DNA of 64,000 nucleotides, taken from contig NC_134028.1 of assembly GCF_964204645.1 (NCBI RefSeq), forward strand, positions 13,709,653 through 13,773,652, in the 5' to 3' direction. Source of the stretch: Tubulanus polymorphus (taxonomy: Eukaryota; Animalia; Nemertea). The position numbers were made by a program, and so were the translations under genes. Below, piece after piece: positions 5,691-39,644 of this stretch; position 1 is the first letter of the stretch; each line of letters opens with the position of its first letter. Under the pieces are notes generated by a model, which was given only the letters and a program-made list of their open reading frames with translations, did no database searches and was not told the DNA's origin.

Positions 5691-5748
5691 ATCAAAAGAT
5701 AAAATAATTGAAAATAAATCAAGATTATTATTAATGGATTAAAATAAG

Positions 5749-8308: not shown

Positions 8309-8421
8309 AAATACAAGTGAATCAAATGATTAAACTACAGGTTTATATACAACATAAGTTACAAAATTACAAGTGCTAAATTCTAAGCTAATTACAAACC
8401 AAGTATTTAATTACAAACTAA

Positions 8422-12378: not shown

Positions 12379-12389
12379 TTACATAATAA

Positions 12390-13557
12390 AACCAGAAAGA
12401 AACTTTCCATGATGGGTTTCTGTGTAATTGTTTCTGTTTCATTCACCGAACTCGCTGTCAAAAAGGCGATTCTCGATATAAATAGTAATGGGTTTTCCCC
12501 GCGGGATACCCGCTTTGGGAAAGGCACCTGAATCGATGCTACGAGTTCGAATCCCAATATTTAGACGTAATTTATTATTCTTTGAAATAAATTCTTAGAA
12601 TTTCTATTTATGATAGGATGTGCAGGTTTTGATTTGGTAATGATGTTAATAAAAGTTAACCTCTGAAGGTATTGTTTTCTATCTATTATTTGTGACGGAT
12701 TAGTTTCGATGCTCCTCACAACCCACCCCACCACGTGTCACTTATTCACACACGCGGATTGTATCATTTGTAATAGGCCTACCACATGAGAGAGTCCATG
12801 GCCTACCGTAGAATAGTAGGGCCTACCGATCACGCTATGTGCGATGAAAGTAGTGTTTGAATAAAACAAATTTTTAATGAAATAAACATTATTTATCATA
12901 ATTAATCAATACATCAGGTGCCGCCTAAATAATTGTTTGTTTCGTGAAATTTGTACAAAACTTTGCGACTTCGCCATGTGACCCTGTCTTGTGACCCTGA
13001 AAATACTAGAAGAATCATCGGTAAGCTTATAAAACGGCGAGGTCAACATAGTAACAACAACTTCGGGGATTGAAAAAAAAAAACTCGAAAGAATTATTTC
13101 TTATACTGATGAGTTATACTGATGGGGAGTAGCATTGTGACATTGACACCGGTTATTTATCTATTCACTATCAAATGTGACGAGCCCAATAAATGATTGC
13201 GCATAGATTCGGCCTCTCAGCATTTAGCACAGCAGTTCCGAGAAGTGTTAAGACCGATCAGCGCGCGCGCTATCTGAAAGCGGTGCTAGTACGATCAATA
13301 TCTACAGGTATATACGTGTTCAGTATTACACAGCGAGTACCAGTATGTTGATCGAGCGTCGTCGTAGCAACGCGCTATACAGCGGCTTGAACTAGCGAGT
13401 AACGTTAATTATCTTTTAACCAAATTAGAGCACTTATAACCATCGGAATCAAATATAAACCAAGCTGCACCATCTACATCAAGTAGAGAATACCTGTGTG
13501 AAATTACAGAATTGTCGGTCCACACAAACAGCTTAAATCGTGTCATAAAGAAACATC

Positions 13558-13601
<44 letters not shown>

Positions 13602-13646
13602 TGACGACGATGCCATAGATGGGTTCGTCTGACGACGAAACCCATC
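12390..13646. mobile_element. Helentron-associated (HINE/DINE-like) non-autonomous element
   Basis: Subterminal inverted repeat GATGGGTTTC (12411) / GAAACCCATC (13637), a (CAGA)n microsatellite at ~13560-13600, and a terminal hairpin at 13618-13646. It sits in an A-run that is uninterrupted in copy B (~31141). Confidence 0.7.
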
Positions 13647-13657
13647 AAAAATAAAAT

Positions 13658-13902
13658 TTAAAATTTAATATTCCTCCTAATACAATTCCAAATACAAGTT
13701 ATAGCTAATTTAGTATTTTCATGTGATTTACTATCATTATTGGTTTCAATTATTTCATGATGAATATTATCAGTTTTAATATTTTCTGATGTATTGTAAT
13801 CTTTTATTTGGGAATCATTATTTAATTTAATATTCTTAGTTTTAGTTTCAGTCGATTGAATATTTTTTTTAATTTTTTCACCTTCCATTAGTTTTGGAGC
13901 TG
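13658..13902 (-). pseudogene. 3' fragment of the conserved PLV gene seen at 31086-32416
   Basis: MEGEK..IQSTETKTKNIKLNNDS is nearly identical to 31150-31397. Confidence 0.8.
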
Positions 13903-16900: not shown

Positions 16901-17622
16901 TATTGGTATCAGAATATTTGATGAAAATTTAGCTGCTGTTAAAATAAGGAGGACTTCTATGAAGTTCAATAAACCTATTTATGTTGGAGCATCAGTTTTA
17001 GTAATATCAAAATTATTGATGTATGAATTTTACTAAAACGTATTACAACCTCATTTTGGAGAAAAGCATATAGAAATCTTAAATTTTGAAACAGATTCTT
17101 ACGTATTAAAGATAAAAACTAATAATATAACAGTTGATTTAACAACATTAAAACATCATTTCGACTTTAGTAATTATCCTAAAAATCATGAATTATATAA
17201 TACTGAAAATAAAAAAGTTCCAGATAAATTCAAAGACGAATTAGGTGGCGAAGAAATGGTAGAGTTCATTGGAATTCGATCGAAAATGTATAGTTATAAA
17301 ACTAAAACTCATGAAGCTAAAAAGTTGAAAGCAATAACCAAAAGTGTAGTAGAAAAAAAATATTCATTTCAAAGATTACATCAATTGTATATTCAATGAA
17401 GAAGTTAGAAAACATAAGATGAAATGTTTGAGATCCAAAGATCATGAAATGTTTATTGAAGAGATAGAAAAGGTTAGTTTGAACCCTTTCGATGATAAAA
17501 GATATATATTAGACGATGGAATTCATACAGTCGCTTATGGTTGGAATTTAGATTAATACTTAAAGTTCAAAAGAGAAGAAACAAAAGAGAATGAAATTAT
17601 GAAAAGAATTCTAGCATGCTAA
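13903..17622 (+). pseudogene. polB: Protein-primed family B DNA polymerase (copy A, inverted relative to copy B)
   Basis: FHNLSRYDAHLFIK, FIDSYRFL, DANNLYGWAM, FFKLMNNAFYGKT, NPFDDKRY. Many frameshifts and the 5' end is truncated. Confidence 0.93.
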
Positions 17623-17651
17623 TCAATTTTAATAAAAAATTTTATATTAAA

Positions 17652-18006
17652 ATGGGGAGTAAACAAATACACAGTGAGAACCACAAATCATTTCTAGATA
17701 GGATAAAAGATACCACAAATGCTAAAACAGTAGATTATAAATTTATAAAGTTAACAGAATTAACATTACATAAGAAATATTTAATTACAAATATTGAAAC
17801 AATTACAAACATATATAGAGATAAATAAGTTATATCATTTAGAATATGAAGGATTAAAAGGAAATAAATATAAATTCAGAACTTATTTACCAGATAGATT
17901 TCATAGATTATCAAGTGAAGATCTAGAAGAATTATGTTCAGGTGATTTCTATTTCATATACAAAGGTAAGAATGAAAAAGGGCACCATGATATAGGTTTC
18001 GAATGA
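17652..18006 (+). pseudogene. PolB-adjacent ~117-aa protein (copy A)
   Basis: Frameshifted homolog of 34676-35029. Confidence 0.75.
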
Positions 18007-18019
18007 GAAAAAAAAATAA

Positions 18020-18775
18020 ATGGTAGAATTAAAAGAATTTAGAATATCTTTTAATTCTAGAAGACTTACAAATCATAAATCACATAATTTACTAGTACAA
18101 TTAGATAGAGAATTCAAAAACTGTGTAGATTTAAAATTAGTAAATGTAAATTTATGTAACTCTTTTTATAATGTATCGGATACAAGTATTGAACATAGAG
18201 TCTTTTTAATTCATGATAGAAATAAAAAAAGATGGTTTCATCTTTATCTTAAACCAGGATTATATAATTTAGAAACATTAGCTCAAGAAATCAATAAAAG
18301 AGCACGCTCAAAAATGGGTGCATCTACTGGATTTGGATTAAGACTTAATAAAAGTGTTAGCTCTGATAAAATAAGAATAAAATTAGGCAATGAAGTTCAA
18401 CATCAATTTCTAGTTAAAAAACCTTCAACTAAAATCTTAGGAATCAACCCAGATGTAAGGATACGTAATGCTGATGCTACACCAAATATAATGCCTTTTA
18501 CACACTTGTATTTATTGCAATTTAATTGACCAACAAAAGCATTCGAAGCAACTAAAGATACAATTTGTAATTCTGGTTTATTAAATATTTTACCATTAAA
18601 CAATGTTAAAGAATTTCGAACACAAATAAATTATAATTTAGCTGAGTGTGATTTCAAACCATGCATTCCTCAATTTCATAATTTTAGATTAGAAACTAGA
18701 AATCACAATGGATATTTAATTGATTTAAATAACTTTCCTGTAATTAATGAATTAGTTGTAAGATGTAGAGAATAA
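18020..18775 (+). pseudogene. Putative minor capsid (penton, single jelly roll) protein (copy A)
   Basis: LKPGLYNLETLAQEIN, KILG, YCNLID, LLNILP, RNHNGYLIDLNNFPV. Frameshift near 18512. Confidence 0.75.
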
Positions 18776-18800
18776 TTAATAATTTTTTCACTATATAAAT

Positions 18801-19008
18801 ATGAATATACCATAGTAGGACCGAGTTTATGTTTTATTAATGCATCAATGATTAATAAAGAAAATTATAATATAGAAAAAGTAATTGATTTAATTAAAAC
18901 ATCTTTAGAATATTATGAATTAAATGAAGATGGAATTATCGATGATATTAAAAACATATTATCTAAAATATATGATAATCACAAAAATAGTAATGAAATA
19001 AATGTATG
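18801..19008 (+). pseudogene. Truncated small PLV gene (copy A)
   Basis: INKENYNIEKVIDLIKT.LEYYELNEDGIIDD matches 33587-33772. Confidence 0.7.
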
Positions 19009-20910: not shown

Positions 20911-21057
20911 AGTAATGGGGGTTTAGTGGTTCTAGATCAAAGGTCGAAAGGTCGAGCTCGTAAAAAATGAAAAAATATGAAAATAACAATAATTTCTATT
21001 TGAATTAGTCACCCGCCCTTTCAACCTTTAATCTAGAACAACTAAACCCCTATTACT
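20911..21057. repeat. Terminal imperfect hairpin of copy B
   Basis: AGTAATGGGGGTTTAGTGGTTCTAGATCAAAGGTCGAAAGG pairs with CCTTTCAACCTTTAATCTAGAACAACTAAACCCCTATTACT. Confidence 0.85.
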
Positions 21058-21251
21058 CTTAAAATATTTATATACATGAATAAAATATATATGAATAACA
21101 CATAAATTGATAGATTATTCGATATAATAGGGTGAGTAAAGTGTGAGCTCTTATAGATAGATATATAGATATATTTTAAACATATTTCAATATTTATATT
21201 TGTATGAGTTAGATTTTTAAACATTAAAAGTGTTAGTAAAGTGTGGTTGAA
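21036..21251 (+). repeat. Left terminal inverted repeat of copy B
   Basis: Reverse complement of 39408-39644. It also explains the duplicated spurious ORF MFKNLTHTNIN. Confidence 0.92.
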
Positions 21252-21308
21252 ATAATACTAGAGTAGTGCGCCGCCAAGTTCAAGATTCGGCCGCTAGAGG
21301 CACCACCG

Positions 21309-21477
<169 letters not shown>

Positions 21478-21519
21478 TTTACAAATTTTATAGGCTAAGT
21501 AAAAAAATATGTATAATAA

Positions 21520-22120
21520 ATGGAATCAGAACAACCACAAACTATCAATATTACAAATAACACTGCTGTCATAAATATATACTACAAGAAGTGCTCTAAA
21601 TGTGAATTAGATAAATTAGCTATAACAGATAACAAATTAGCTATATACCAAACAATATCGAGAAGATAATAGAGAAGCTTACAATGATTATATGACAGAA
21701 TATATGAGAGGAAGATATCAAACAGATTTTAATTTTAAAGTGAAACAATGTTTAAGGTCTAGATTAACACAATTATTTAACAAAGGAACGCATTCAGAAA
21801 CACTATCTAATTTATGTTGTTCAGATGCATTTTTCATATCGTGGATAATATATCAATTCGACGATAAAATGAATATAGATAATTATGGTAAATACTTTCA
21901 TATTGATCATGTGTTGCCGATTTCTAAATTTGACATGAGTGATGAATACAATAAAAAACTATTTTGGAATTGGAAAAATTTAAGACCTCTAGAAAAGAAG
22001 GAAAATATAATTAAATTTAATAAACTAGATTTACAGTTATATTTAGATCAACTGGATAAAGCAAAGACATTTGTTGAATTATGGAATTCAAAGCAGAATG
22101 AAAAACATGTTGAAGCTTAA
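21520..22120 (+). pseudogene. HNH endonuclease, large-DNA-virus type (copy B, internal deletion)
   Basis: QFDDKMNIDNYGKYFHIDHVLP...NWKNLRPLEKKENIIK. Intact homolog at 58997-59665. Confidence 0.8.
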
Positions 22121-22172
22121 GCGGTTATAATAAAAACTCTACTCGAGTCGCTCGTGTATGTGTGTGTTTAGT

Positions 22173-22394
22173 TAGGCTAAACAAAAATTATACCTTGTTT
22201 CTCCGCAGCGGCCGGGTCATTTTTGTAAAATTTGATAAAATTTGTAAACAGTTCATTTCTATAGCGGCCGGGTCTGTTATGGTAAAATTGATCACGATTT
22301 AAAAAAAGTAATGTATAGGGTAGATAGGCGGCCGGCCGGGTCAACATTTAAGCTCAGCAGAGCGGAGAAACAAGGTATCAATTTTTTTAGCCTA
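22173..22394. mobile_element. MITE with ~33-bp TIRs inside copy B
   Basis: TAGGCTAAACAAAAATTATACCTTGTTTCTCCGC ... GCGGAGAAACAAGGTATCAATTTTTTTAGCCTA, with internal GGCCGGGTC repeats. Absent from copy C. Confidence 0.75.
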
Positions 22395-22788
22395 TCCATT
22401 ATAACTGCCTATATGCAATTATACTAACATCTGTGCCACATTTTATATTCAGTTGAATGGGGTGTACCTCATTTGAATATTGATCGAATGTGCTATTATA
22501 GTTGAAAAGGATTAATCAATTACATCACAAAGGAACATCTGTTGCTTAGACAGACAGGGCCTGGGTATATTGAGCGCAGACGCATTACTACATCCGAACT
22601 GATCAGACGGTATATATAGAACGTATAATATCTTTCTCTAGAAACACATTTAGTTATAAATGTAAGTACTGTTTTTGTTGTTATTAAGACGCCGGGAAAC
22701 GTTAAACATGTTTAAGTGCTGTAATTGATATTTGACAACTACAACTTCAAGTTAGTTTTATTCTACATTCTAGATATTTAGTAAAAAA

Positions 22789-23528
22789 ATGTCATACAGA
22801 TCAAGAACTCCACCATCTACTCCAAATCTAACGCAAGAAAGTGAGGAGCCAGAATGTATGGATGTCAACACACCGTCACAAGAGACTGTAATAGATATAG
22901 AAGAAAAAAATATCAAAAACTCAGGAAACATATGTTTTATTATAAACAATTAGTGTCAATTTTGGACGAAGTAATTACAACCAAACAATCAAAGATACAA
23001 GAATTACCAAAAATACCAACACCAAGTTTAAAAACATTATTAGGACTTAAAGAAAATAGAATCAAATTGAGCGGTTGTGAACTACACGAATATTTAAAAT
23101 CAAAATTACTGGATCATAGAGATTTATCGAACTTTAGTGAAATAGACGCGCATTTATTTTCAGAAATTAGTGGATTGCTGATAAGCGAGTATGAAAAATT
23201 GTTAACGAAACAAACAAATCATCTTTGGGATTTTATAATTTTTGGGAATTCCTTGAATAAAGGGTTTGTTCTTTTTCATTCGACTCAAACTATAAATATT
23301 TCATGGGCTAATTGGGTTAAAGAAAATATACATATTAGTGTCGGGTATGAAAGAAAACTTAGAGGGATTGGGAAATTATATTCATTTAAAAAATTTCAAT
23401 GATTGGGTTTACCATTTGATACAGTTATTAATCATTTGACAGAAATCGAAAAAATGTTTGAAAATTACCCCGAAATCAAAGAATTCTGGTCGGGATTATA
23501 TGATCCCAAGGATGATTTGCTTGTTTAG
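22789..23528 (+). pseudogene. PLV hypothetical protein with possible helical DNA-binding (DUF3102-like) C-terminus
   Basis: Acidic N-terminus and FGNSLNK...SWANWVKENIHISVGYERKLRGIGKL. Frameshift plus an internal stop. Homolog at 60015-60474. Confidence 0.6.
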
Positions 23529-24124
23529 TTAACAATTTTTCATACTATATAGATTTTTTGTATTTGTATTATATTTACCCTAATTGCATTTTCTACTATT
23601 CTATATTCAGCTGTTGTTAATGTCACACACAGTGACAGATGTTGTATTATACTTTATTGATTCTGCATTCCACGCATACCTTACCGCTCGGCTCCCGAGC
23701 GGCTTGGAATGTGGAAATCGATAATGATTGTAGAATAAAATATATGTGTTTATGAAATAGTAATTCCACCAGTCGTTTCTTTGAATTTATTTTCAGTTTG
23801 AGTATTTATTATCGAGAATCCGAAATGACTTATCTGGACAGTTATAGTTACCGCTCCTATAGATAGACAATAGAGATATTGAATCCTAATTTAAATAAAA
23901 AATATTAAAAAAACAATAACTTCAACTAACCAGTGAATTCTATTATATTTTTAATATTTTCTTTTCAAAAAGAGAATACTTTATATTTTGAATAGATTCA
24001 AATAGAAATTCTTTAAATTCAAATAGCTAGTATCAGTAGTCAATACTAGAATTCTTTAACTTTAACTATCTAGTATCATTTTATAATACTTATAATATTT
24101 TTCTTGCTTTTTTCTCCTATATAA

Positions 24125-24735
24125 ATGTCAAAGAAATCTAATAAGAATAATACCAACATTGAAAAAACATTAGATGATTTGGGCATTAGTGATAATAAGG
24201 ATATTCCGGCCAAAATTGAAAATAATATTCAAGTTAATAACAATATTTTTATGAATACTACTTCTATTGTAAGCACCATCTTGAATTACTGATTGCTAGC
24301 GGAAAGTGTAAACAATTTTTAACTAAGATCATTACTTTTCAAGAATTAGATGCTATGAAACCAGATAAAGTAATAGAATATTTTAAGATTTATGAAGAAG
24401 CTAGATTAGCCAGAATAAATGATTCTATTTCAGATGGTATTGTCAAATGTTATTCAAAATTATGTAACCGGTTAATGTCAATTGTTGATGAAAATAAATT
24501 ATATAGTGATTTGAAAAATGACTACTTAGTTATGACTGAATTACAAAAATGGGTTGGTTACCCTTCATTCCAATTAGGATCGGTTATGACATTAGTTTCT
24601 ACTGGTGTCATAACATTTTCGAATATAAAGCCTATGGAATATAAATCAGGTAAGAACGAAACAGATGGCGCCGTACAACCAAACGGTGAAACAGAAAATG
24701 AATCAGAACAAAAATTAACTAAAGTAAATGAGTAA
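24125..24735 (+). pseudogene. Conserved PLV hypothetical protein (copy B)
   Basis: Homolog of 4813-5393 and of the gene start at 61312. One frameshift near 24250. Confidence 0.8.
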
Positions 24736-25098
24736 TGGTCCGTACACGCACAGTGACGTTACGAAAAAGGCTAGATCTGAGAAACAAATTAAATGGGCAA
24801 GAGAATTAGGTAAAGATCTGCACAATTAAAAAGAGCTAAGAAAAAGAAATTAACTGATATAAATGAATCACAGAAATTATCTGATATTGATTCGAATGAT
24901 AATCCATCTGATTCTTCTAATAGTGGAAGAAATAATTACTTATATATTACAATTGGGTTAATCACAATTATTATATTCTCCGGTGTAATATATAAATGCA
25001 AATTCAATAATGATTCTGATGATAAACCTATTATACCAGAAAATAAATCAAATCATAAAGTCATTGAAACTAAATCTAAATTATTATTAATGGATTAA
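24728..25098 (+). pseudogene. Small basic TM protein (copy B)
   Basis: KKARSEKQIKWARELGK and YLYITIGLITIIIFSGVIYK. Frameshift near 24812. Confidence 0.7.
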
Positions 25099-25133
25099 AT
25101 AAAATTTATTATTAATGCATTAAATAAAATAAG

Positions 25134-26208
25134 ATGAAAAAAGAACAATATTTAAGAGAGTTATATTATAACCCAGAAAGTGAAGTATCATATTCTAGCG
25201 TTTCGGAATTATGGGATAAAATTAAATCTGATAAAGAAAAAGGTAATATAAAATATAGTGAATTAAAATCATGGCTACAAAATCAACCAACATATCAAAT
25301 CCACAAGAAAATGGATAACACTTATTTAACAAGAAAAGTTATGGTTTCATATATCAATCAACAATGGCAAGCTGATTTAATTGATATGAAGAACTTAGAG
25401 GAATATAACAAAGGATATTTCTGGATACTGAATATTATAGACATATTCAGTCGATACGCATGGTCAATTCCAATCAAAAATAAAACTGGTATAGAAGTGA
25501 CAAATGCTTTTAAATTAATATTTAAAGAACCTATTCCAGATAAGATACAATTTGATGAAGGTAAGGAATTCTATAACAAACATTTTAAAAAACTATTATC
25601 TGATAACGATGAAGAATATTTTTCAACACACTCAGATAAAAATCTATTATAGAAAGATTGAAAACTAGAATGTGGAAATATTTTACTGCTAATGAAACAT
25701 ATAAATATATCGATGTGTTAGATGATTTAGTGAAAGGTTATAATAATTCTAAACATACTTCTATAAATATGAAACCTATACAAGCTAGAAAAGAAGATAA
25801 TTCAGAAATAGTATTGAATAATTTATATGGTGCATTTGTTACACATGATTTTGGTGAACCTAGATTTAAAATTGGACAACACGTTAGAATATCTAAATAT
25901 AGAAAAACTTTTTATAAAGGTTATACCCCAAATTTTACTGAAGAAATATTCAAGATTAAAAAGATAATACTAACTAAACCTTTTGTTTATAAACTAGAAG
26001 ATATAAAAGATGAAGAAATATTAGGTTATTTCTATGAACAAGAATTATCACTTGCACCAAATCCAGATGAAATAGAATACAAAATAGAAAAAGTATTGAA
26101 AACAAAAACTCTTAAAGGAAAAAGTATTCTTTGGTGAAATATAAAGGGTATAAGGATAAATTTAATGAATGGATTTTATCTAGTAAAATTAAAAGAATAA
26201 ATGAATAA
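25134..26208 (+). pseudogene. rve integrase with chromodomain (copy B)
   Basis: WQADLIDM, IIDIFSRYAWSIP, IQFDEGKEF, YNNSKH, KGYTPNFTEEIF, YFYEQEL and a chromo tail. Frameshifts near 25640 and 26125. Confidence 0.95.
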
Positions 26209-26816
26209 AGATTTATTTATATTTGAACCACATAATATGTTAGTTACTGGAGTAACAAACTGTGGTAAAACACATTTATTTCATATTAAATTTGTTAGAA
26301 ACTATTTATAAGAATCATTTTGATAATATAATATTATTTTGTCCTACTTATGAAATGAATAAAACATATAATAGGGATATAGTTAAGATAAAAAAGTTTA
26401 TTATATTAGATCCTAAAACAGTAAAAGAAAATTTAGATAATTGTATTAAAACAGCAATTGATATTTATAAAGGATCAAATACATTATTCATTATAGATGA
26501 TTGCGCAAATTTACATGATTCAAAAGTTAGAGAAAGTGAGTTATGTTATCTAGCTTTCTCTGGGAGACATTTCGGGATAACAAAATGGGTTTTAAATCAA
26601 AAATATAATTCAATTGTTTAAGATTTTAGGGAGAATATAAGATTTCTAGTTTTATTTTATAACAAAAATAGAAAATCTATGCAACAATCATTGGAAGAAA
26701 ATCAAATTATACCTACTGAGTTACATGATGAATATATGCATAAATTAAAGAATAATAAAGGTTCAAAATTATTACTGTGACTACAATTTCCATATGAATA
26801 TAAATTTATAAAATAA
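26201..26816 (+). pseudogene. A32-like packaging ATPase (copy B)
   Basis: GVTNCGKT, FIIDD, SGRHFGIT..VLNQKY. Frameshifts present. Confidence 0.9.
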
Positions 26817-26940
26817 AATGAGAATAATTATTCTAAAACTATTTATATATTTATTATTAAGGCACTAGACGTACTAAGCCTACTAATTTTTATTTTATCG
26901 TTATTGAAACAGTAATATATAATAAATAGTTTTATAATAA

Positions 26941-28067
26941 TTATTCTAATTTTGTTTCTAATACATTTGTAAATTTATCTTTGTTTATATCAAATTCATC
27001 ATAAGTCTTTGGTATATCTATTGATTCTAGTCGAGCCATCATTAAACTATAATCAGAAGGCATATTAATTTTTTCTCCTATTTTTCAAAGTATTTATCAA
27101 AATCATAATAATAAAAAATCAATATCATATCCAAAATTATTTATCAGATAAGTTGAATCTTTTTTTCTCAAATAAAATAATTTATACATTTGATCAAGAT
27201 AATCGTTTGCATAATCTTGAAATTTACTAAATAACAAATTATAGAATATTTCATATTGTTTATTATAATCATTAAAATTTTTGATATATTCTATTGGGTT
27301 ATTTAACAATGGTAACATACCCACCTTTTTATAAACACTAATTAGATGTAATTTTGATTTATAATGAGTAATTTAATCAACAGGTTCAATTTCATTATTT
27401 TTTTAAAATCACATATTAATTCTTTTTCATGTTCTATGTGCCCCTTAGATTTTTTATGTTTAGAAAAATTACTTTTAGTAATATCTAAATTACAAATGTT
27501 ACAATGTTTTTTAGAATCATCAATTATTTCATTATCTGTTATATCATTATCATTAGTTTCAATTGGGTTAACATTGTTTATAAAATTATCTTTTATATTA
27601 CTATCAGATATATTATTATCATTATTCAATTCATTTATAGTCTTATTCTTATTTTTCTTATGCTTAAGTGAATTAAGATGAGTTGCCCAATTCTTATAAC
27701 TTTTATACTGTTTACATACGTCACAATATTTTTCCTTTGACTTTTTGGTTTTGATATCATATGTAGAGGGTATATTATAAGATGTAGATGCTGTTACATC
27801 TTCTATTTTAGTTTCAATATTATTACTATCTTCTATTTTAGTTTCAATATTATCTTCTATTTTAGATTCAATATCATTCTTATCTTCTATTTTAGGTTCA
27901 ATATTATTTTCTATTTTAGTTTCAATATTCTTATCTATTTCACTTATTCTATATTTGAATTGATTAAAGAATTCTCCAAAATAATTACTATATTCATAAG
28001 GTAATATATAATATATATCTGTTATCATTTCACTTGGAGTTTGTATTTCATATATTCCACCTTCCAT
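26941..28067 (-). pseudogene. Variable protein with matrin/U1-type C2H2 zinc fingers and IETKIED repeats (copy B)
   Basis: YCDVCKQY..NWATHLNSLKH, HCNICNLDI.KSNFSKHKKSKGH and tandem IE(T/P/S)KIED repeats. Continues through a frameshift into ORF 27103-27324. Confidence 0.7.
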
Positions 28068-28128
28068 TTATTATATAAATGTTTATTAAAATTAAAATTT
28101 AAGTTAAAATTTAAATATTTCATAACAC

Positions 28129-29385
28129 TTAATACATAACACTATTTAGTTGAGAATTTACAATATTTAATTGCGCGTCAGATATGATGTAAATGTGCAT
28201 TTTAAAATTTTAAGCTTCCGTTTTTCTTTGTCATGAATAATTGTATCCCATCTTTAGTGTTCTGTAGTTTTTTCCCAGAACTATGTAATGAATTATCCTC
28301 TGTTGTTCTAAAATCTAACCATAATGCATATTTATTACCGGTATAATAATCAATTTGATTAATATTACAATTTTCAGATGATTTTACTTTTTCATTCATA
28401 AAATGTTTTCTAATTTCTGGCCATTGATCTATCATTCTCATTCCTTGACAGAATATTTTTTTTGCTATTCCTTCGATAGTTATTTCTACTTTTGTTATTT
28501 CAGGATTATAATACTTATCAACCTGTATTGCGCAATTAGAATATGTTGCAATAGTAAACAATATTAATATACCTTTAATAGATCCTCTTGGGAAGTTAAT
28601 ATTCTCATTAATTATTTCATCAATTGCATTAATAGTAACAGTTTTAAATTTATCAATATAATCATATAATAATAAAAATCCTTGATTGTATTGAGTTTGA
28701 ATTGTGTTAGCAATATTTTCATCAGTTACTGTATCATATTCCAAACATATATTCGATAATTTATAACCAATATCTTTAACAACGTTAGATAATAAAATTT
28801 CATTTACAGGAGCAAATGTTATTTCGAATATAACATCTTCTTGAATTGCATATTTATATAAAGTGCATTATTATTTATCAATTCAATATCTAATGGAATT
28901 TCATATTTGCTTCCTTAAATTTGCTTGCTCTTTTTAATCAAATTATCTACGTCATTAGCTACTACTGCATTATTGGCTTCAGATCTTAGTTTATTTTGGT
29001 TTTCTGATTGGATGCCTTGAAATATCATATTATTTCTATTTTCTTTAGTTAACCATAACTCTTTATAATGCATAAATAAATTATAATCATCTAATGAGAA
29101 AACTGTTTCTGGACCAATCTATATAGTTAATTTTTTAATCAAATATCTTCCAACATTATCAACAACATAATTATTATTATTACCAGTTACTTTTATATCG
29201 GCTGATAAATAAATACTATTTGGAACATAAAAAGTATTTTGTGTTAATCGAGGAATTCTAACATATAAAGTTTCATCAGGATTAATATTAGAAGGATTAT
29301 TGGTAATTATATGATGAGATCTTTCTGCTTTAATAGCATTAGATATTCTAGAATTCTTAGAAGGACTTATATAACTCCCACTCAT
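28129..29385 (-). pseudogene. Putative double-jelly-roll major capsid protein (copy B)
   Basis: About 415 codons with a beta-rich pattern: ITNNPSNINPDETLYVRIP, NVGRYLIKK, YYNPEITKVEITIEG, ALWLDFRTTEDNSLHSSGK, ISDAQLNI. Size and context fit a PLV MCP; the fold is inferred. Confidence 0.72.
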
Positions 29386-29405
29386 TTATTTAACAAAAAA
29401 ATTAA

Positions 29406-31134
29406 TTATTTATTTTTTATCATATTCACTAAACCAAAAATAATTGCACTTACAACTGTGATTAAAAATAAAATAATATGTTCAGCAGCAAAGTTAATAA
29501 TGTTTCCTGCAGATTTCAATATAAAACCAACAATTGCAACAACTCCGGGTAATGCTGCAGCAGATTTTTTAGATAGTTCCCATAAATATTTTGCTAATTT
29601 TTTTAAACCATCCTTAACTTTATCTTTTAACTTTATCTTGTATAGAATTATTATCATTCGGGGGTTTATCTGGTTTATTAGAATTTGGTGTAGATTTCAA
29701 TGAATTTGATATAGCTAAACCAATTGTTGTAAATACCATAGTTACAGTTGTTAGAATTGAAAGAATTGTTATACCTTCTAACTTAAATAATAATTTTATT
29801 CAATCTTTCAATGATATTTCAGAATTTGGTTTTATTGTCAACTCTTTAAAAATAACTTTTAATCTATTAATATTATAATCATATGATTTTAATAATAATT
29901 TAATTTCTTCTTTCTGTAATTCTATGTTATATTTTAAATCATCTTTTTCGTTTTCTTAACGTAATTCTTTTTGCCTATATTCTATTTCATCAATTACTTG
30001 ACGTTCTAAATCAGACTTTAATTGTTCTATTTCTTTATTTTTATCAGTCAATTCTTTTTCTAAAAATCTAATTTTAATATCTATTTTACTTTTTTTCATG
30101 CGCAATTTTATCAGCTGATTCTTGCATACCTTTAATTTCTCTACGTGCTTGTTCAGGAAATGCTTCTAATTCATCATCAGTTAAATCAAATAATCCTTTT
30201 ACTAGTAAAGATTGTATTCGATTTATTCCAGTTTCAGCACCGGGTGTATCTAAAACACTATTCATCTCTTCTTCAAATGAATTCATTGTATCCAGTAAGT
30301 TATCTGAACGTTTTCCTAATTGTAATTGGCTTGAACAATTATCAATTTGTTGAATATCTCTTCTCGATGTTTCGGTTGTTGAAGATTTTAATTTATCTAA
30401 TCGATCTGCATACTCTTCCATTTCTGGATAACATCAGTAGGATTTGGATTTGGATTTTTAAATGGTGAATATTTGTTAATATCAATATTCTTAATTGGTT
30501 CTTCTTCATTTATTCTATCGATTGCATTCCATATAATTCTGAGAAATTCTGTGCCGCCCTTTGAACGTTCAATTGTAGATCTTGCTAGCATTCCAGGTTC
30601 AAATATATTTTCTTGTCCCATTCTAGATAATTGTATTGATGCAGTTTTGTTATTTAATTCAACATTATAATACTATGAATCATTTTTAAATTCTAAATTA
30701 TTCATGAAAAATTTGTCATCTTCTAAAATTTGCATTACAACACCTTCTGAATCAATTTCATCTATTACAACTTTTGGTAATAATTCGTTAACAATTGTAT
30801 CTATTAATCTACTTTTCATTCCATACAACTGGTCTTTCAAATAAGGATCAGTTGTATTTACTAATTTATTCATTAAATCTTTTCTAAATGTAATGGGTTT
30901 AATAACTTTCCTTTCGGGAGCTGTCATATATTCTTCACGCGTTTTATAATCAATTACACCATCATCTTCATCAGCTAAACTAGAATTATATGATGGATCA
31001 TCATCTTGACCTAAATTAGTATTTTAAGCTGATTCATCATCATTATCAATATTAGTTTCATTAAAATCAGGTTGTTGTTCATCACTTATACCGGGGGCGT
31101 CACCAAAAGTATCCATTGGAATATCTTCTTCCAT
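29406..31134 (-). pseudogene. Large coiled-coil protein with C-terminal hydrophobic/TM helices (copy B)
   Basis: Acidic N-terminus, E/K-rich coil, LFKLEGITILSILTTVTMVFTTIGLAI, KSAAALPGVVAIVGFIL, HIILFLITVVSAIIFG. Confidence 0.75.
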
Positions 31135-32416
31135 TTATATAATAAAAAATTGAATTTAAAATATAATATTCCTCCGTTTACAATTCCTATACAAGTTATA
31201 GCTAATTTAGCATTTTCATGGGATTTATTATCATCATTTAGTTTAATTATTTCATTTTGAATATTATCAGTTCTAATATTTTCTGATGTAGTATAATCCG
31301 GTTTAGAATCATTATTCAATTTAATATTCTTAGTTTTAGTTTCTGTTGATTGAATATGTTTTTTATTTTTTTCACCTTCCATTAATTTTGGAGCTGTCAT
31401 AATCTTTTTATTTATATCATTTAATCCAAATGAATTATTTATTGTTGCAGTCTTAATTAGATTATTATTACCAATTATATTTCCCATCTTTAATACTAAA
31501 TCATTAGAAATGATTAATAGATTAGGGCCTATACAATAACTTAATCTAATATGTGATTTATCTAAATAATTTTGATATCTTACAATGTTTTCTGGAATCG
31601 ATCTATTTTTATCATTATGAATAGAATCTTCAAATAATACTTTAAATTGTTTCTGCGCATCAAATGAAGTGTTATCATAAAATACATATCAAATAAGTTC
31701 TAATAGATTGATTCATTCTTTGTATTCCAGCTTTAGTAAAACCTTCACTATTTTCTAAAATGAAATTAATCCATCCATTATTGTTTTGTTGTTGTATATT
31801 ATTATAATATTTTGGTAATTCATTCCAATTTAGTGTTCTTATATCTGTATTTGTCATTATTTTTCCAAATTCTTTAGTATATAATATTCCTATTCCTAAT
31901 CCACCCTCTAAAATCATTATTTGAATTAATATTAAATTCATTACATGTTTTATAAAACTTAGAAAAATTAATATTATCATTCAATTCTTTAAAATATTTT
32001 GAACCTGGTAAAGGACATTCTTATTCATCTAATATTAATTTTCTTTGAAAATAAGTATGAAATCTAAAACGAGATAACATCAATGGTAAACTTGGTTTAT
32101 TTAAATGATCATTCCAACTAATTCCACATCCTGTTGTTGCGCAATAAACAGCAAAATTTAATTGGTTCTGCCAATACTTCATATTAGATTTTAATAACCA
32201 TTGTTTTGCCTCATTTAAATTTTTAAAATTAATTACGTAAACATTGAATATATTTTCCACCTGAATATTATAATTATTAGTTTCAGTAACATAAATTTCT
32301 AAATTAGTTAATGAATTTAAAACTAAATTTTTATATGTAATACTTGTGTTAAAATCTATAGCAGGAATATTATATTTAATTGATTTATTATATTGGAAAG
32401 CTTTTGGAAACCCCAT
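31086..32416 (-). pseudogene. Conserved PLV protein with C-terminal TM segment
   Basis: WQNQLNFAVYCATTGCGIS, RFHTYFQ, SEGFTKAGIQRMNQSIRTY, FDAQKQF and C-terminal LAITCIGIVNGGILYF. Frameshifted. Confidence 0.7.
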
Positions 32417-32434
32417 TCATATAATTAAGAAATT

Positions 32435-32863
32435 AATAATTTATTAATTCTTTTAACAATTTATCTTGTTCTTCAACTGTTATATGGCCATTTAAACTTA
32501 TTATATAATCTAGTGTATTTTTCAATTTATTAATTTCTTTTATATTAGTTTTAATTTTTTCTTTATTACTTTTTATATTTAATTTTGAACTTATACCAGT
32601 TAAAACACTTGAACTTAAACCTAATACACCAATTGATATAGCTAAAGGTGTTAATGGTGAAAATATTGCTAGAAATGTTATTAACTAATTGTAACTGAAC
32701 CACTGATAATAAAATAATATATAATTTCATTTTTAAAATATTTTTTCTTTTTTATCTTTAAGTCACTTTCAAATTATAATATTTGTTTTTCTAAATATGT
32801 TTTTAATTTAGTTTTATCTATATCATGAGGAATAATATCAATATTATCAACTTTATCATCCAT
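32435..32863 (-). pseudogene. Small two-TM protein
   Basis: MDDKVDNIDI..., hydrophobic IIYYFIISGSVTIS and ITFLAIFSPLTPLAISIGVLGLSSSVLTGI. Frameshifted. Confidence 0.6.
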
Positions 32864-32883
32864 TTATTTAGCAAAAAAAATTA

Positions 32884-33306
32884 CTAATTAGTAAATTTAT
32901 AAGCAACAAATGTAAAAAAAACTGTTCCACCTAAAATCCAAATTATTTCATATTTCTGTTGTTCTTTACTTGGGGTATAATAATCTGATAAATTAGGTTT
33001 GTATAGATGTAATTTTTCTTTATTGGTTACTGCGTTATATAAACTCATTGCATCATCGACTGATTGAAAATCTCTATGTGAAATCTTCTGATCATATAAT
33101 TCCTTGTTAATATAATCCATATAGTTTTGTCTCTTTTCTCTATATTCTTCTGCAGCTTTATTGTATTTCTCTAATGCTAAGTTATGTCTTTTTTGTTCTG
33201 ATAATGATCCATTTTTATCAATATGCTTAAATAAATAACCACCACCAGTAAATGCTAAAGCGTTAACAATTGCCGATCCTATAATAGTTATAATTGCAGA
33301 AGCCAT
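32884..33306 (-). CDS. Conserved PLV membrane protein (N- and C-terminal hydrophobic helices, central coil), 140 aa
   Basis: Intact ORF: MASAIITIIGSAIVNALAFTGGGYLF...EQKRHNLALEK...PNLSDYYTPS...IIWILGGTVFFTFVAYKF. Confidence 0.8.
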   Translation of the reverse strand: MASAIITIIGSAIVNALAFTGGGYLFKHIDKNGSLSEQKRHNLALEKYNKAAEEYREKRQNYMDYINKELYDQKISHRDFQSVDDAMSLYNAVTNKEKLHLYKPNLSDYYTPSKEQQKYEIIWILGGTVFFTFVAYKFTN

Positions 33307-33322
33307 TTATTTAGCAAAAAAA

Positions 33323-33553
33323 TTATGCATTTATATGGGAGGAATATTTGTTTGTTTTTCCAAATAATCAATAGTTAAATTAGATAAAGTAACTGCTAAT
33401 GTTAATTTTAAAATATCATTTATATCAAATCTATCAACATTAACACTTCCCATTTTAAATACTTTTTTTTAATACCATTGAATAACCAACAGTTCCAACT
33501 GAAAATAATGCTCCATTATATAATCCAGTTATTATCCACTTATTACCACTCAT
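33323..33553 (-). pseudogene. Small hydrophobic PLV protein (~75 aa)
   Basis: MSGNKWITGLYNGALFSVGTVGYSMVLKK / DRFDINDILKLTLAVTLSNLTIDYLEKQ. Starts at TAAATG. Confidence 0.6.
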
Positions 33554-33569
33554 TTATTTATCAAAAAAA

Positions 33570-33882
33570 TTACTATTTTCAAAATATTAAGTTATCTTAG
33601 TTATGATTATTTCAACATTTATTTCATTACTACTTTTATGATTATCATATATTTTGGATAATATGTTTTTAATATCATCAATAATTCCATCTTCATTTAA
33701 TTCATAATATTCTAAAGGCGTTTTAATTAAATCAATTACTTTTTCTATATTATAATTTTCTTTATTAATCATTGATGCATTGTTTTTATATCAGTAATTA
33801 CATCATTTAGTTTAATTCTCATTTCTTTACCATGTTTAAAATCAAACCCAAAACATATACTTGGTCCAACAGTTATATTCAT
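33570..33882 (-). pseudogene. Small PLV hypothetical protein (~100 aa)
   Basis: Starts MNITVGPS at TAAATG and includes ORF 33587-33772. Homolog at 18801. Confidence 0.65.
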
Positions 33883-33898
33883 TTATATATCAAAAAAA

Positions 33899-34661
33899 TT
33901 ACTCTTTACATCTTATAACTAATTCATATATCACAGGAAAGTTATTCAAATCGATTAAGTATCCATTGTGATTTCTAATTTCTAATCTAAAATTATTAAA
34001 TTGAGGAATGCTTGGTTTGAAATCACATTCTGTTAAATTATAATTTATTTGTGTTCCAAATTCTTTAACATTCTCCAATGGTAAAATATTTAGTAAACCA
34101 GAATTACAAGTTATATCTTTAGTTGCTTCATATGTTTTTGTAGGATCGATTAAATTGCAATAAATATAAAAGTGTGTAAAAGGTATTAAGTTTTGTGTAG
34201 CATCAGCATTGCGTATCCTTACATCTGGGGTTATTCCTAAAATTTTAGCTAAAGGTTTTTTAACTAGAAATTGATGTTGATCTTCATTACCTAATTTTAT
34301 TCTTACTTTATCGCAGCTATCACTTTTAGTCAGTCTTAATCCAAATCCAGCAGATGCACCCATTTTTGAGCGTGCTCTTTTATTAATTTCTTGAGCTAAT
34401 GTATATATCTAAATTATATAATCCTGGTTTGAGATAAAGATGAAACCATTTATTCTTATTTCTATCCTGAATTAAAAAGACTCTATGTTCAATAGTTTTA
34501 TCCGATACATTGTAAAAAGAATTACATAAACTTACATTAACTTATTTTAAATCTACACAATTCTTAAATTCTCTATCTAATTGTACTAGTAAATTATGTG
34601 ATTTATAATTTGTAAGTCTTCTTGAATCAACAAATATTCTGTATTCTTTTAATTCTACCAT
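33899..34661 (-). pseudogene. Putative minor capsid (penton) protein (copy B)
   Basis: KPGLYNL, LAKILG, FYIYCNLID, LLNILPL, LEIRNHNGYLIDLNNFPVIYEL. One frameshift near 34405. Confidence 0.78.
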
Positions 34662-34675
34662 TTATTTTACATATT

Positions 34676-35029
34676 TTATTCGAAATCTATTTCATGGTGC
34701 CCTTTTTCATTCTTACCTTTGTATATGAAATAGAAATCACCTGAACGTAATTCTTCTAGATCTTCACTTGATAATCTATGAAATCTATCAGGTAAATATG
34801 TTCTGAATTTATATGTATCTCCTTTTAATCCTTCATATTCTAAGTGTATAACTAATTTATCTCCATATTTTTTAGTAACTGTAACAATATTTGTAATTAG
34901 ATATTTCTTATGAATTGTTAATTCTTTTAACTTCTTAAATTTATAATCTACTGATTTGACATTTGAAGTATCTTTTATTCTATCTAGAAATAATATGTTG
35001 TTCTCACTGTTTGCTTGTTTACTCTCCAT
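34676..35029 (-). CDS. PolB-adjacent 117-aa protein, possible OB-fold ssDNA-binding protein
   Basis: Intact ORF with a beta-rich pattern (KYLITNIVTVTKKYGDKLVIHL, FRTYLPDRF, FIYKG). Function is inferred only. Confidence 0.7.
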   Translation of the reverse strand: MESKQANSENNILFLDRIKDTSNVKSVDYKFKKLKELTIHKKYLITNIVTVTKKYGDKLVIHLEYEGLKGDTYKFRTYLPDRFHRLSSEDLEELRSGDFYFIYKGKNEKGHHEIDFE

Positions 35030-35058
35030 TTATAATACATATTTTTATAAAAATTTGA

Positions 35059-38000
35059 TTAACACGTTAGAATTCTTTTCATAATCTCATTCTCTTTTGT
35101 CTCTTCTCTTTTAAATTTTACGTATTCATCTAAATTGCAACCATATGCAACCGTATGAATTCCATCATCTAAAATATATCTTTTATCATCAAATGGATTC
35201 AAACTAACCTTCTCTATTTCTTCAATAAACATTTCGTGGTACTCAGATCTTAAACATCTCATCTTCATTGAATATACAATTGATGTTATCTTTGAAATGA
35301 ATATTCTTTTCTACTACACTTTTGGTAATTCCTTTTAACTTTTTAGATTCATGGGTTTTAGTTTTATATGAATACATTTAAGATCTAATACCAATGAAAT
35401 CTATCATTTCTTCACCACCTAATTCATCCTTGAATTTACCAGGTCGCTTTTTATTATCATTGCTAAACAATTCATGATCTTTAGGATAATTACTGAAATC
35501 AAAATGATGTTTTAATGTTTTTAAATCATCAGTTATGTTATTAGTTTGCAGAGGCGGATCCAGACCGTATTAGCCGTATTGCCCAATACGGTCTAGAATT
35601 TTTAAGTGCCCTTCGAAATTTCACCGGCAATGTTTTTAAAGGCATTATTTCAGCAACCGCTAATTCCGTGTCCGGGTCGTTTATTCTGGATTGCTCTGCA
35701 AGTCTCTAGAAGCCCTCTAAAAGCCTTTAAATGGTACCATATTTTCAAAATTTTCTGGGGGAGGGCCCCCATACCCCCTTCGAAGGACGTCGCGCCTTCG
35801 GCACTCGCATTGACCTGGCTACTGGGTGTGCCCTACGATCAGAAAGGTGCCCTTAAGTTTCCTTCCAATACTGTCTACCCATCCCCCTGGATCCGCCCCT
35901 GGTTTGTATCTTTAATATGTATCAGTATCAAAATATAAGATTTCTATATGTTTTTCTCCAAAATGAGGTTGTAATACATTATAATAGAATTCATACATAA
36001 ATAACTTGGATAATTCTAAAACTGATGCTCCAACATAAATTGGTTTATTAAATTTCATAGAAGTTTTTCTCATTTTAACTGCAGCTAAATTTTCATCAAA
36101 TATTCTGTTACCCATAAATTTAGGGTATGATTGTAAATGCCTTATCCTTTTGCCATTACTTACTAACTCAATATCATTTCTATTTCTAATATTTTCACAA
36201 GTCTTACCATAGAATGCATTATTCATTTACTTGAAGAAATCTTTCTCGAAATCAGTTTTAGCTTCAGTTCGCTGTTTGGTGTTAAAATCTATATATTTTT
36301 CTAACCATTTAGATTGACTAAATGAAATATATCTATGCACTTTTTTTAGGATCATTCCTTGTTTCAAATAAAACTTTAACATTCTATAATGTACTACATA
36401 ATTATATTTATCTTCCCGAGTTACCATTAACTTTTCTGTATGAATATGATTATCGGGTTTAATTCTTTTTTGATAATTTGATAATTCTTCATGAGTAACA
36501 GTTTTATGTTCGGGGCAGTATGCTAGATTTCTAGATTTAAATTTAATATGTTCGGGATATTCTAAATCTACAACAAAGAAGTAACCAGTATCTGAATCAT
36601 CTGCAATATCTAGGATTCTTTTCTTCCAATCAAATTGATCATTATTTCCATGTTGCAAAACTTCACTTATTTCAAATACTCCATAAGGTTGTGGTTCCAT
36701 CATTGCCCAACCATACAAATTATTTGCATCTATATATGATAACTTATATCCAGGGTTATCATTTACTTTGAAATATCTATCGCCTAATACACCTGAAACT
36801 CCTCCTCTTACAGATTTTTCAAATAATAGTAATTGATCTATATTTGTTAACAAATCCATTTTTATATCTGTAAATTTTAAACCACAATCCCATGTCCACA
36901 AGCCCAACCTGGGCTAGAATAACAATGACAAGGATCAATATTAAAAAATTTTAGGTTTACATCTCTAAACCTTTCAAATATATCCGATAATAATAATACA
37001 TCTGATTTTAAATATAAATCTGCTAATGGTCCATGATTTTTCATTCCAAAATAATTCCATATATTCAATGTTCTATTATAAACTTCATCTTTAACATGTT
37101 CATTTTTCAATTCATCATAAAATTGTTCCTTTTTAAGTTCAGTTATATTAAAATCATTATGATTTTTATAAAAACTATATGGTATTGCCTTTATATAGCA
37201 ATAATTTAAAATCACTATTAGTTGGGTAGTGTTGCTTTAATATCTTTAATTCATCATCAACTAATGATTTTGATAAGTTATGTAATGAACTGTTTAAAAA
37301 TCTATATGAATCTATAAATCTTAGGCACCCAAATTGGAATGATATATAATTCTCAGATGTTCTAGCTAACATTTTAAATTCATAAGTTGGTATTTTATCT
37401 TTTGATCTATTTGAATTTAATCTTTTTATTTCATTATTGATTTCTTTCATTTTATGACATAACTGTTTGATAAATAAATGTGCATCATATCCTGATAGAT
37501 TATGAAATATAACTGGAACAAAATTGATTTTCGTTGCTTGCAAATTACAATTCTCATGTGCTGCGCCTCTAAACTTTCCATTCAAATGATCATGGTCTCT
37601 TACTTTTTTTATCTTTATAATTAAATATCTTTTCACAATAATAACATTTATCTGCAAACTCAAATGCTTCTTTATCTTCTTCTGTCATTAATATTTCTTT
37701 ATTTGTATTCAATAATTGACTAAATCTTATTTCATATTCAATTAATAAGTCACAAAAATGATTGATAACATTTTCATTTCTATAATGATAATATTCACTT
37801 TTAATTAGTTCTGGATAATCAGATTTAATATATAACCCGAAAGCTGCAGCTGATTGATGAATCTTTTTAATTGTATTTGTTTTTGGTGGTTCATCTGAAA
37901 AATCATTTTCATTAGAATTTAATTTCTTTCTTTTATAATATATTTCTTTTCTATCTTGATCAGTTAATTCTTTATTTAATGATTCAAAATCTCCATATAT

Positions 38001-39412
38001 AACGAATGGTACTTTATTTTTGTAATCATATTTTTTGAATTCTAATATTTTATCATTTTCATTTGGTAAAACTAATTTACAATAATCATGATTTTCACAT
38101 AATTGTTCATGATTCAATAATGCACTTTCAGTTCTGAATTTATGTAAACATTTTCTACATAGATATATTTTATCATCAAAATCATTTTCTGATTTAAAAA
38201 ATAAATCAATTCTTTTAATCCACATATAATGATTCTCATAATATAATATATCTATAACATCGTTTGAATCATAATCTTTTGATAGATATAAAGGTTCTAA
38301 TGTATAATGTTTTATATTGTTGCCTTTTGTTTTTGGTAATTTGATTAAATCAAACACATTTATCTTCATATTATTATCTCTTTCTATTTTTGGGATATTT
38401 TTAATTCTAACTGGGTAATTATCTATCTTATAAATATTTTCAAATGGTTTATAAATTGATACTCTACAAATATTAACAGTTGCAGGATGTAAACAACTTA
38501 TTATGGTCCATAGAAAACATTTATCATCAGAATTTTGTATATTTATAACAGCATTAGTTTTAAATGGTAGTTTGATATAACTTGATCAATTTATACTATC
38601 ATCATTATAATATGATAAATTATTTTCATCAATTGGTTTTGATTTAGTTAACTTATTATATTTTGTGTTATACACATGTAAAGTCATAAATATTATTTCA
38701 TCAAATATTAAATCAGATCCTTCAAAATATTTCTCTTCTATTTTAGTTTTTATTTCATTATAACATTTATTTAATCTATCTTCTATATGTTGTTTTGAAA
38801 TAATATGTTGTGAATGAGAATTTATATTATATATTGGTTTATCTTCAGATTTTATAAAATTAACTTTTGATTAGGATATTCTACGTCTGTAATTATTTTT
38901 ATTATATCTTTCATATTTTCTAAATGTTTTTTATTTTCTTCCAATGTTTTTCCTGTATGAAATTTAAACTCAATTGCAGCTGGACCAATATCACTTTTAA
39001 ATGCTTCGGTTATTTCTATATCTTTTTTATTATCTAATGAATTAATATAATTTCTTACATCTTCCATGTATGGTCTTTTATTGTTTAATTTATTTTTTAT
39101 TCTTTTAATTGTCTTCTGCTTCTTATCATTATCATTATCAAAATAATCTTCACCTAAAATATCATTATTCTTATTTCTAATATGACTTTTAGATTTTAAA
39201 TGTTCATTATAATATCTTTTATCACTGAATGGTTGATTACATGTATCACATTTGTATGTTTCTTTTTCATTCTTTAATTCATCTAATTTAGTTTCTAATA
39301 TATCATCTTCATATTCTAATTTTAATTTATTCTCTAAATGTGTTTTATTTTTATTGTGTCTTGCTTTTTGAGATTTATCTATGTTGATTTTACATGTTGA
39401 ACAGTAGTTCAA
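35059..39412 (-). pseudogene. polB: Protein-primed PolB with N-terminal zinc fingers, OTU-like protease motif and endonuclease VII-like insert (copy B)
   Basis: Zn fingers YCSTC..H...H and YKCDTC..H...H. Protease-like NSDDKCFLWTI and ENHYMWIK. Exonuclease IYGDFES, FHNLSGYD and YLKSDVLLL. Insert VRDHDHLNGKFRGAAHENCN. Polymerase YIDANNLYGWAM, MNNAFYGKT and YFDTD. Confidence 0.95.
35549..35901. mobile_element. hAT-like MITE inserted in PolB, 5-bp TSD
   Basis: TIRs CAGAGGCGGATCCAG / CTGGATCCGCCCCTG, flanked by GTTTG on both sides. GC-rich, and absent from copy A PolB. Confidence 0.88.
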
Positions 39413-39644
39413 TCACACTTAATGACACTTTTAACGTTTAATGTTTAAAAATCTAACTCATACAAATATAAATATTGAAATATGTTTAAAATATATCTAT
39501 ATATCTATCTATAAGAGCTCGTTAATTACTCGTTACTTTTTTACTCAAACTTTTATATTGAATAATCTATCAATTTATATGTTATTCATATATATTTTAT
39601 TCAGGTATATGATCATTTTAAGAGTAATAGGGGTTTAGTTGTTC
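39408..39644 (-). repeat. Right terminal inverted repeat of copy B (outer hairpin truncated)
   Basis: Reverse complement of 21036-21251. Ends at ...AGTAATAGGGGTTTAGTTGTTC. Confidence 0.92.

Follow-up and report, generated by a model that had tools for sequence, protein, structure and literature searches.

The closest described relatives of the element treated here are the Mavericks or Polintons (Polintoviricetes; adintoviruses; Starrett et al., PMC8502044; this and the other papers are cited for passages of their text), which have the same PolB, the same rve integrase with chromodomain, the same A32-like ATPase and the same double jelly-roll capsid, and which likewise occur in multiple integrated copies. 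The element lies in a stretch of 64,000 nucleotides (nt) from the nemertean Tubulanus polymorphus (contig NC_134028.1, positions 13,709,653 to 13,773,652 of the forward strand; from here on the window, numbered from its first letter), in which self-blast and gene map show one Polinton/Maverick family to be present in three decayed copies, the central copy B measuring ~18.6 kb between inverted repeats. It may differ from the described elements with respect to the adenovirus-like cysteine protease, which belongs to the core of group 1 and is variable in group 2: no family match to this protease was found among the scanned genes of the window element. Whether animal Mavericks/Polintons need a helper or replicate autonomously is open, and virions have not been observed (10.64898/2026.06.19.733378). 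We report that most genes of the window element begin within the motif TAAATG, often behind a run of Ts, and propose, with a probability of about 0.5, that these sites serve as promoters recognised by the RNA polymerase of a poxvirus-like virus infecting the same cell; that they would be transcribed by the polymerase of a large DNA virus of whatever kind we consider rather probable.

Small DNA viruses bearing the promoter motif of their helper have been described before. Virophages share late promoters with their helpers, and mavirus, which integrates via an rve integrase, is reactivated by its helper (PMC6428243); Gezel-14T carries the promoter motif of PgV (10.1101/2022.07.28.501842). The pairs mavirus/CroV, Sputnik/mimivirus and Gezel-14T/PgV differ from the present case in having protist or algal hosts, helpers of the mimivirus type and other motifs (TCTA in CroV, AAAATTGA in PgV). 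The yeast cytoplasmic linear plasmids pGKL1/2 (PMC6211774) are elements with a protein-primed PolB that use a TAAAN initiator giving rise to poly(A) leaders; they have an upstream conserved sequence and bring along their own pox-related RNA polymerase, whereas among the scanned genes of the window element none matched an RNA polymerase subunit in Pfam, PHROGs or NCBIfam.

Barth et al. (PMC11296320) reported polinton-like viruses (PLVs) in the occlusion bodies of entomopoxviruses and proposed that they are poxvirus hyperparasites. These viruses (AHEV_PLV1/2, CBEV_PLV1 and Ca_PLV1) are likewise of the Polinton type, have capsid proteins of ~365-370 amino acids (aa) and contain a cysteine protease; three of them come from occlusion bodies, whereas the window family is known from integrated or metagenomic DNA alone. 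Helper-promoter mimicry (virophages, Gezel-14T) and poxvirus-associated PLVs are therefore already known. A description of poxvirus-type promoters in Polintons was not found in a literature search conducted mostly outside subscription journals; no promoter analysis was found in the text passages of PMC11296320, and no mention of promoters in those of the main text of PMC8502044, 10.1101/2023.08.22.554363, PMC11161782, PMC11131425, 10.64898/2026.10.13.758929 and 10.64898/2026.06.19.733378.

In copy B, TAAATG stands at 13 of 16 gene starts and at 47 of 698 other ATGs (p 1e-12), the starts without it being those of the integrase (25134), of an open reading frame (ORF) at 22789 and of the gene at 32416. 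In copies A and C together it stands at 8 of 12 listed starts. These counts qualify the statement of a preliminary description of the window that nearly every gene starts within TAAATG. A run of at least five Ts followed after 4-9 nt by TAAATG precedes 7 of the 16 starts and none of the 698 other ATGs. The stricter layout of at least six Ts, a gap of 5-8 nt and TAAATG was found at six sites between 29383 and 33920 (200 dinucleotide shuffles: mean 0.12, maximum 2) and at seven sites in the whole of copy B (shuffled mean 0.3, equalled by 0 of 200 shuffles), which shows enrichment over dinucleotide-shuffled DNA; the host flank has one such site, a number reached by 17 of 200 shuffles. The letters and strands that the preliminary description had quoted for the sites at 29385, 10460, 31134, 32863, 33306, 33553, 33882, 4813, 24125, 61312, 21520, 58997, 35029 and 34661 were all found to be correct, and at 32863 and 33882 the upstream stop precedes the T-run, as it had stated. 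Since the starts in the window were set by homology to relatives and partly chosen by eye, an automatic count on intact relatives is the cleaner test.

The close relatives are L001, L002 and L003, metagenome contigs with a capsid 74-75% identical to the major capsid protein (MCP) of the window; L002 is a near copy of L001. Their curated starts lie in TAAATG without exception (7/7, 3/3 and 15/15, respectively), and in L003 10 of 15 are preceded by T5+ at a gap of 4-9 nt. An automatic first-ATG rule, which avoids starts picked by eye, was applied to relatives and controls. Under this rule the largely intact L001 and L003 have TAAATG at 22 of 25 starts, the three misses being a cut gene, an internal ATG and an antisense ORF, and the distant L131 (IMG/VR, 38% GC), which has a related PolB and an integrase 45-48% identical, at 7 of 7. 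By the same rule, 14 control contigs of polinton-like viruses and virophages with related PolB (IMG/VR, 22-36% GC) have the motif at 9 of 135 starts (29/32 for L001, L003 and L131 pooled versus 9/135; p 3e-21). Left out were L002 (from the automatic count), L137 (the same contig as control L130) and L006 (55% GC), in which gene starts could not be assigned. At position -3, 22 of 25 ORFs of the family have T, and 90 of 135 ORFs of the controls have A; the TAAATG signal thus opposes the usual start context. The motif is a start-linked signal that is specific to the lineage, conserved in relatives and rare in controls.

The signal resembles what is known from vaccinia virus. In vaccinia late promoters TAAAT overlaps the start codon, mostly with G as its next base, and a conserved T lies 10 nt upstream amid other Ts (PMC11980589), with the T-containing core 5-7 bp ahead of TAAAT, and late genes give rise to virion membrane and morphogenesis proteins (PMC5294985). 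TAAA is read directly by the vaccinia polymerase, and the core of intermediate promoters, 12 bp upstream, is AT-rich without consensus (PMC12917281); the intermediate promoter G8R has TAAAAT as initiator and is transcribed from a transfected plasmid in infected cells (PMC12722222). In the window family TAAAT likewise overlaps ATG behind upstream Ts, 36 of 38 starts having a T 9 nt and 26 of 38 a T 10 nt ahead of TAAAT. At the level of sequence, the two features of a late-type promoter, TAAAT overlapping ATG and an upstream T core, are present, the latter within one base of the vaccinia position, and the likeness to the vaccinia late layout seen in the preliminary description holds against the published descriptions. 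A second class of starts has TAAA plus an A-run 10-18 nt upstream, and the starts at 58673 and 17652 are like vaccinia intermediate promoters in having TAAA/TAAAAT behind an AT-rich core.

The T-run starts of copy B are the following. The MCP gene (28132..29385, minus strand, double jelly-roll) is broken into three reading-frame pieces, the two long ones being 72-75% identical to the MCP of L001/L003; the L003 orthologue was modelled with a pLDDT of 88, and the Foldseek matches of the model were capsid proteins of the double jelly-roll type (E 1e-16 to 1e-19). Its start (29383..29401) consists of T7, a 6-nt spacer and TAAATG, a layout repeated at 10460 and in L001-L003. On the same strand, this spacer separates TAAATG from T6 at the start of a 485-aa membrane-anchored gene (31132..31149), from T8 at that of an SLATT-like membrane gene (32861..32880), and from T7 at those of a 140-aa two-helix membrane gene (33304..33322; ORF 32884-33306, open), a 75-aa hydrophobic gene (33551..33569) and an acidic 126-aa gene (33880..33898), the L003 orthologue of the last having an A-run. 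The start of a 442-aa gene (32414..32434, minus strand) is without TAAATG in copy B and has the T-run layout in its L003 orthologue; the protein had no match in the Atlas. For the SLATT-like protein (window 32433-32863; L003 2541-2975) the SLATT matches of the L003 orthologue fall below the cut-off; SLATT domains are frequent in bacterial antiviral systems and known from other polinton-like viruses (10.64898/2026.10.13.758929). On the plus strand a 206-aa family gene starts behind T6 and an 8-nt spacer (24108..24127; likewise at 4813 and 61312), with no co-directional gene immediately upstream.

A-run starts with TAAATG were found on the minus strand at the predicted penton gene (start 34659..34680, gene 33899-34661; the copy at 18020 has a weak DUF5901 match), at a 117-aa gene adjoining PolB (35027..35048; T-run in the L003 orthologue) and at a zinc-finger gene (start 28065..28086, gene 27342-28067), and on the plus strand at the HNH/endonuclease VII gene (21501..21522; A7, likewise at 58997). 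The protein-primed PolB gene (35059..39412, minus strand) is broken and has lost its start in copy B, and in copy C it begins with an A-run plus TAAAATG at 58673; the PF03175 match is weak, and pieces across 35140-38585 are 22-47% identical to the 1253-aa PolB of L131. Also on the plus strand, the start of a small membrane gene of a 130-aa family (24709..24730) has TAAATG overlapping the end of the upstream gene (an overlap of 80 nt in L003), and that of the A32-like packaging ATPase (26182..26203; gene 26201..26816, broken, PF04665) has it within the end of the integrase frame, an overlap seen also at 6832 and in L001 and L002. The rve integrase gene itself (25134..26208, broken; PF00665, E 1e-9; chromodomain found in L003) starts as TAAAATAAGATG in both window copies. 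The assignment of T-runs to structural and membrane genes in the preliminary description agrees with the capsid gene and, of the five L003 genes whose products have a predicted membrane helix, with four; it is not clean, the predicted penton being of the A-run class and two genes switching class relative to L003. We also observed an unassigned gene in two copies (22789-23402 / 60015-60330), which share 42% identity over 58 aa, are both broken and start with TAAAAAAATG and TAAAATG; among proteins comparable in length no homologue of the ORF at 22845 was found.

The motif could be thought to reflect stop-start coupling, an upstream poly(A) signal (AATAAA), a splice acceptor or AT-rich packing rather than a promoter, given that TAA stands directly before ATG, that many sites contain AATAAA and that the gaps between genes are short and AT-rich. 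However, the TAA of the motif is the upstream stop in just one of 13 L003 junctions; the motif is kept inside upstream frames (ATPase and 130-aa gene, in the window and in L001) and at isolated starts, and the kinase and zinc-finger genes of L003, which start back to back in divergent orientation, each have one. In view of its presence within upstream genes and at divergent starts, stop-start packing does not account for it. Many sites read TATAAATG, without AATAAA, and AG is absent from the last 20 nt of the T-run starts, which therefore are not splice acceptors. The controls with their low count are comparably AT-rich and compact, and L131 has the motif at every start at 38% GC. Stop-start coupling, poly(A) signal, splice acceptor, Kozak context and AT bias were thus ruled out by start counts, shuffles and controls; the non-promoter reading is largely refuted, and we give it hardly any credence. 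If the sites are promoters, nuclear transcription by the host RNA polymerase II (Pol II) comes into question; TAAAT and the T- or A-run would then form a core promoter peculiar to the element, possibly read by an element-coded factor. The element integrates into the host genome, and of 49 coral polintovirus elements about half show expression of hallmark genes (PMC11131425). At least six genes of the window element are without family assignment. What speaks against Pol II is that the motif overlaps ATG, so that a start within AAA leaves no 5' untranslated region unless a leader is added; a TATA-like box at ATG would place the Pol II start ~30 nt inside the gene. Furthermore, the T at -3 reverses the preference of the control elements, no family match to TBP or TFIIB was found among the genes scanned (Pfam, PHROGs, NCBIfam), and L145, which judged by eye has the usual animal Maverick gene order, has TAAATG at 0 of 12 starts. 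We regard Pol II as an unlikely user of these sites.

The poxvirus-like helper has to be weighed against an entirely different large virus as well as against no helper at all, and the following points count against it. Both the promoter role and the helper are predicted from DNA sequence. The coral polintovirus genes were expressed in ordinary RNA-seq samples (PMC11131425), which indicates that animal Polintons may not need a helper, and several of the unassigned element genes could encode a transcription factor; these two points keep host Pol II among the candidates. The T peak lies 9 nt before TAAAT rather than at the 10 nt of the vaccinia description. The preliminary description had equated the A-run starts with the intermediate class, and TAAA and the upstream A-run agree with this; yet the conserved T is common to both classes, unlike in vaccinia intermediate promoters, which are said to be without it (PMC11980589), and the acidic gene, the HNH gene and the gene next to PolB do not keep to one class across copies or relatives. 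TAAATG is absent from more distant capsid relatives (L004 0/4, L005 0/3) and therefore is a trait of a sub-lineage, and L131 has a T-run at just 1 of 7 starts. Partial support comes from an IMG/VR contig named in table S3 of PMC11296320 (L151), the capsid of which is 44-47% identical to those of the entomopoxvirus-associated PLVs: TAAATG stands at 6 of its 12 starts, among them those of the capsid, the ATPase and a phospholipase A2-like gene (p 3e-4 versus controls), which suggests that the published entomopoxvirus-associated PLVs may also carry the pox initiator; none of the six has a T-run, and the L151 capsid does not match the 415-aa profile of the window family. Finally, TAAATG stands at 13 of 21 starts in G003 (L146, L157), a giant-virus bin related to iridoviruses with a capsid closest to those of Singapore grouper iridovirus (E 4e-132) and Melbournevirus. 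This indicates that the initiator points to large-virus polymerases in general and that only the two-part layout favours a poxvirus. An iridovirus relative or another nucleocytoplasmic large DNA virus could thus provide the polymerase, the more so as the capsid gene of G003 has a long T-run and then TAAAT, and as a deoxynucleoside kinase gene within the Polinton of L003 (10343-10981, behind a predicted T-run promoter) has turkeypox and Megaviridae kinases as best structural matches, both with 29%, and was for this equality rejected as a pointer to poxviruses. Against such a helper stand the absence of T5+ at a gap of 4-9 nt from all 13 TAAATG starts of G003 (13 of 22 in the Polinton family), the four counts of T6, 5-8 nt and TAAATG in its 280 kb versus seven sites in the 18 kb of copy B, and a second giant-virus bin with TAAATG at 2 of 18 starts, the two bins, each covered in part, making a thin sample. 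We consider a helper from outside the poxviruses improbable. To the pox-like helper polymerase of the preliminary description, the promoter layout and the count in L151 lend support, whereas the identity of the helper as a poxvirus is not established.

Other candidate pointers were set aside. T5NT, the poxvirus early terminator, is avoided in the coding strands of the family (7 versus 18.5 expected, z -3.8) and equally in those of the controls (65 versus 100 expected, z -4.1), and therefore does not discriminate. A looser pattern, TAAA(A)nATG, fits all four starts of L004, where additional As come after TAA, but as 25 of the 135 control starts fit it too, it was not counted as support. A scan of IMG/VR for the motif, aimed at a helper, gave at least 120 loci, at least 23 of them at open frames; the two records followed up, a phage and a giant-virus contig, have 1 of 30 and 2 of 16 starts in TAAATG, respectively. 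Several other genes of G003 have AAAATGA upstream, which together with TAAATG resembles a late and early promoter pair; such a pair was not found in the literature passages on iridovirus promoters.

IMG/VR scans with capsid and ATPase found no member of the Polinton family, and trees of the integrase and the ATPase (13 rows each, the latter a quick version) do not resolve whether the motif had a single origin. L131 (1-9034) encodes a 503-aa integrase, the N-terminus of which weakly matches small protease-like proteins, and has ATAAG, a baculovirus-type late motif, closely upstream of several starts. Control L130 has a Sputnik-type virophage capsid, for which the capsid of the Polinton family gave no Pfam match, a PolB ~40% identical to that of the window family and no TAAATG starts.

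Copy B (21036..39644) is flanked by an inverted repeat of ~240 nt (21036-21254 / 39405-39644, 85% alike by self-blast), which likely represents the terminal repeats; a target-site duplication was not seen at the two flanks, both of which were read. Between them lie the genes for HNH/endonuclease VII, integrase, ATPase, zinc-finger protein and MCP, several membrane proteins, the predicted penton and PolB. Copy A (4117..19005) is rearranged and 80-96% identical to copy B where aligned; a ~333-nt tandem duplication lies in the 3' part of its 485-aa gene (10677-11358). Copy C (58540..61390, plus strand) is partial, with the PolB start, the HNH gene, the homologue of ORF 22789 and the start of the 206-aa gene. 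In the copies, frameshifts or stops disrupt the genes for capsid, integrase, ATPase and PolB. A function in antiviral defence, which had been suggested, is without support, the window copies being incapable of particle formation and a helper not being known. In the flanks we found a reverse transcriptase, an EF-hand exon and a C2H2 zinc-finger ORF, which point to an animal host. The EF-hand sequence, NADPH-oxidase-like by eye, occurs in similar form on either side of copy B (41620-41922 / 20508-20910). The reverse transcriptase ORF (62261-64000), possibly Penelope-like, ends within a perfect 211-nt inverted repeat (63274-63484 / 63790-64000). Tandem arrays with units of 154 nt and 189 nt lie in the host flank at 54590-55200 and 55783-56357.

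With a poxvirus-like helper the sites would be used as follows. On infection of the cell by the helper, DNA of the element would reach the cytoplasmic virus factory, where the polymerase of the helper would start in the A-run of TAAAT and add a poly(A) leader in place of the unfavourable T at -3. The capsid and membrane genes would be expressed late, from T-run promoters; PolB, ATPase and penton may be expressed somewhat earlier, from A-run promoters. The element would then be copied by its own PolB, packaged in its own capsid and re-integrated by its rve integrase, as is mavirus with CroV; the three copies in the window would be fossils of such a helper-dependent cycle. More tentatively, this lineage of animal Polintons may consist of integrated poxvirus hyperparasites with a two-step copy of the post-replicative promoter code of poxviruses, in which A-runs would serve the replication genes and T-runs those for capsid and membrane proteins, silent until a poxvirus infects an invertebrate not yet recognised as its host.

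A helper promoter ahead of nearly every gene makes helper dependence of animal Polintons testable. If the proposal is true, the lifestyle of mavirus would extend from protists to animals, the proposed entomopoxvirus hyperparasites would have a transcriptional basis, and large DNA viruses so far unseen would be indicated in the host. The promoter code would then reveal the class of the helper from any animal genome and predict undiscovered poxviruses.

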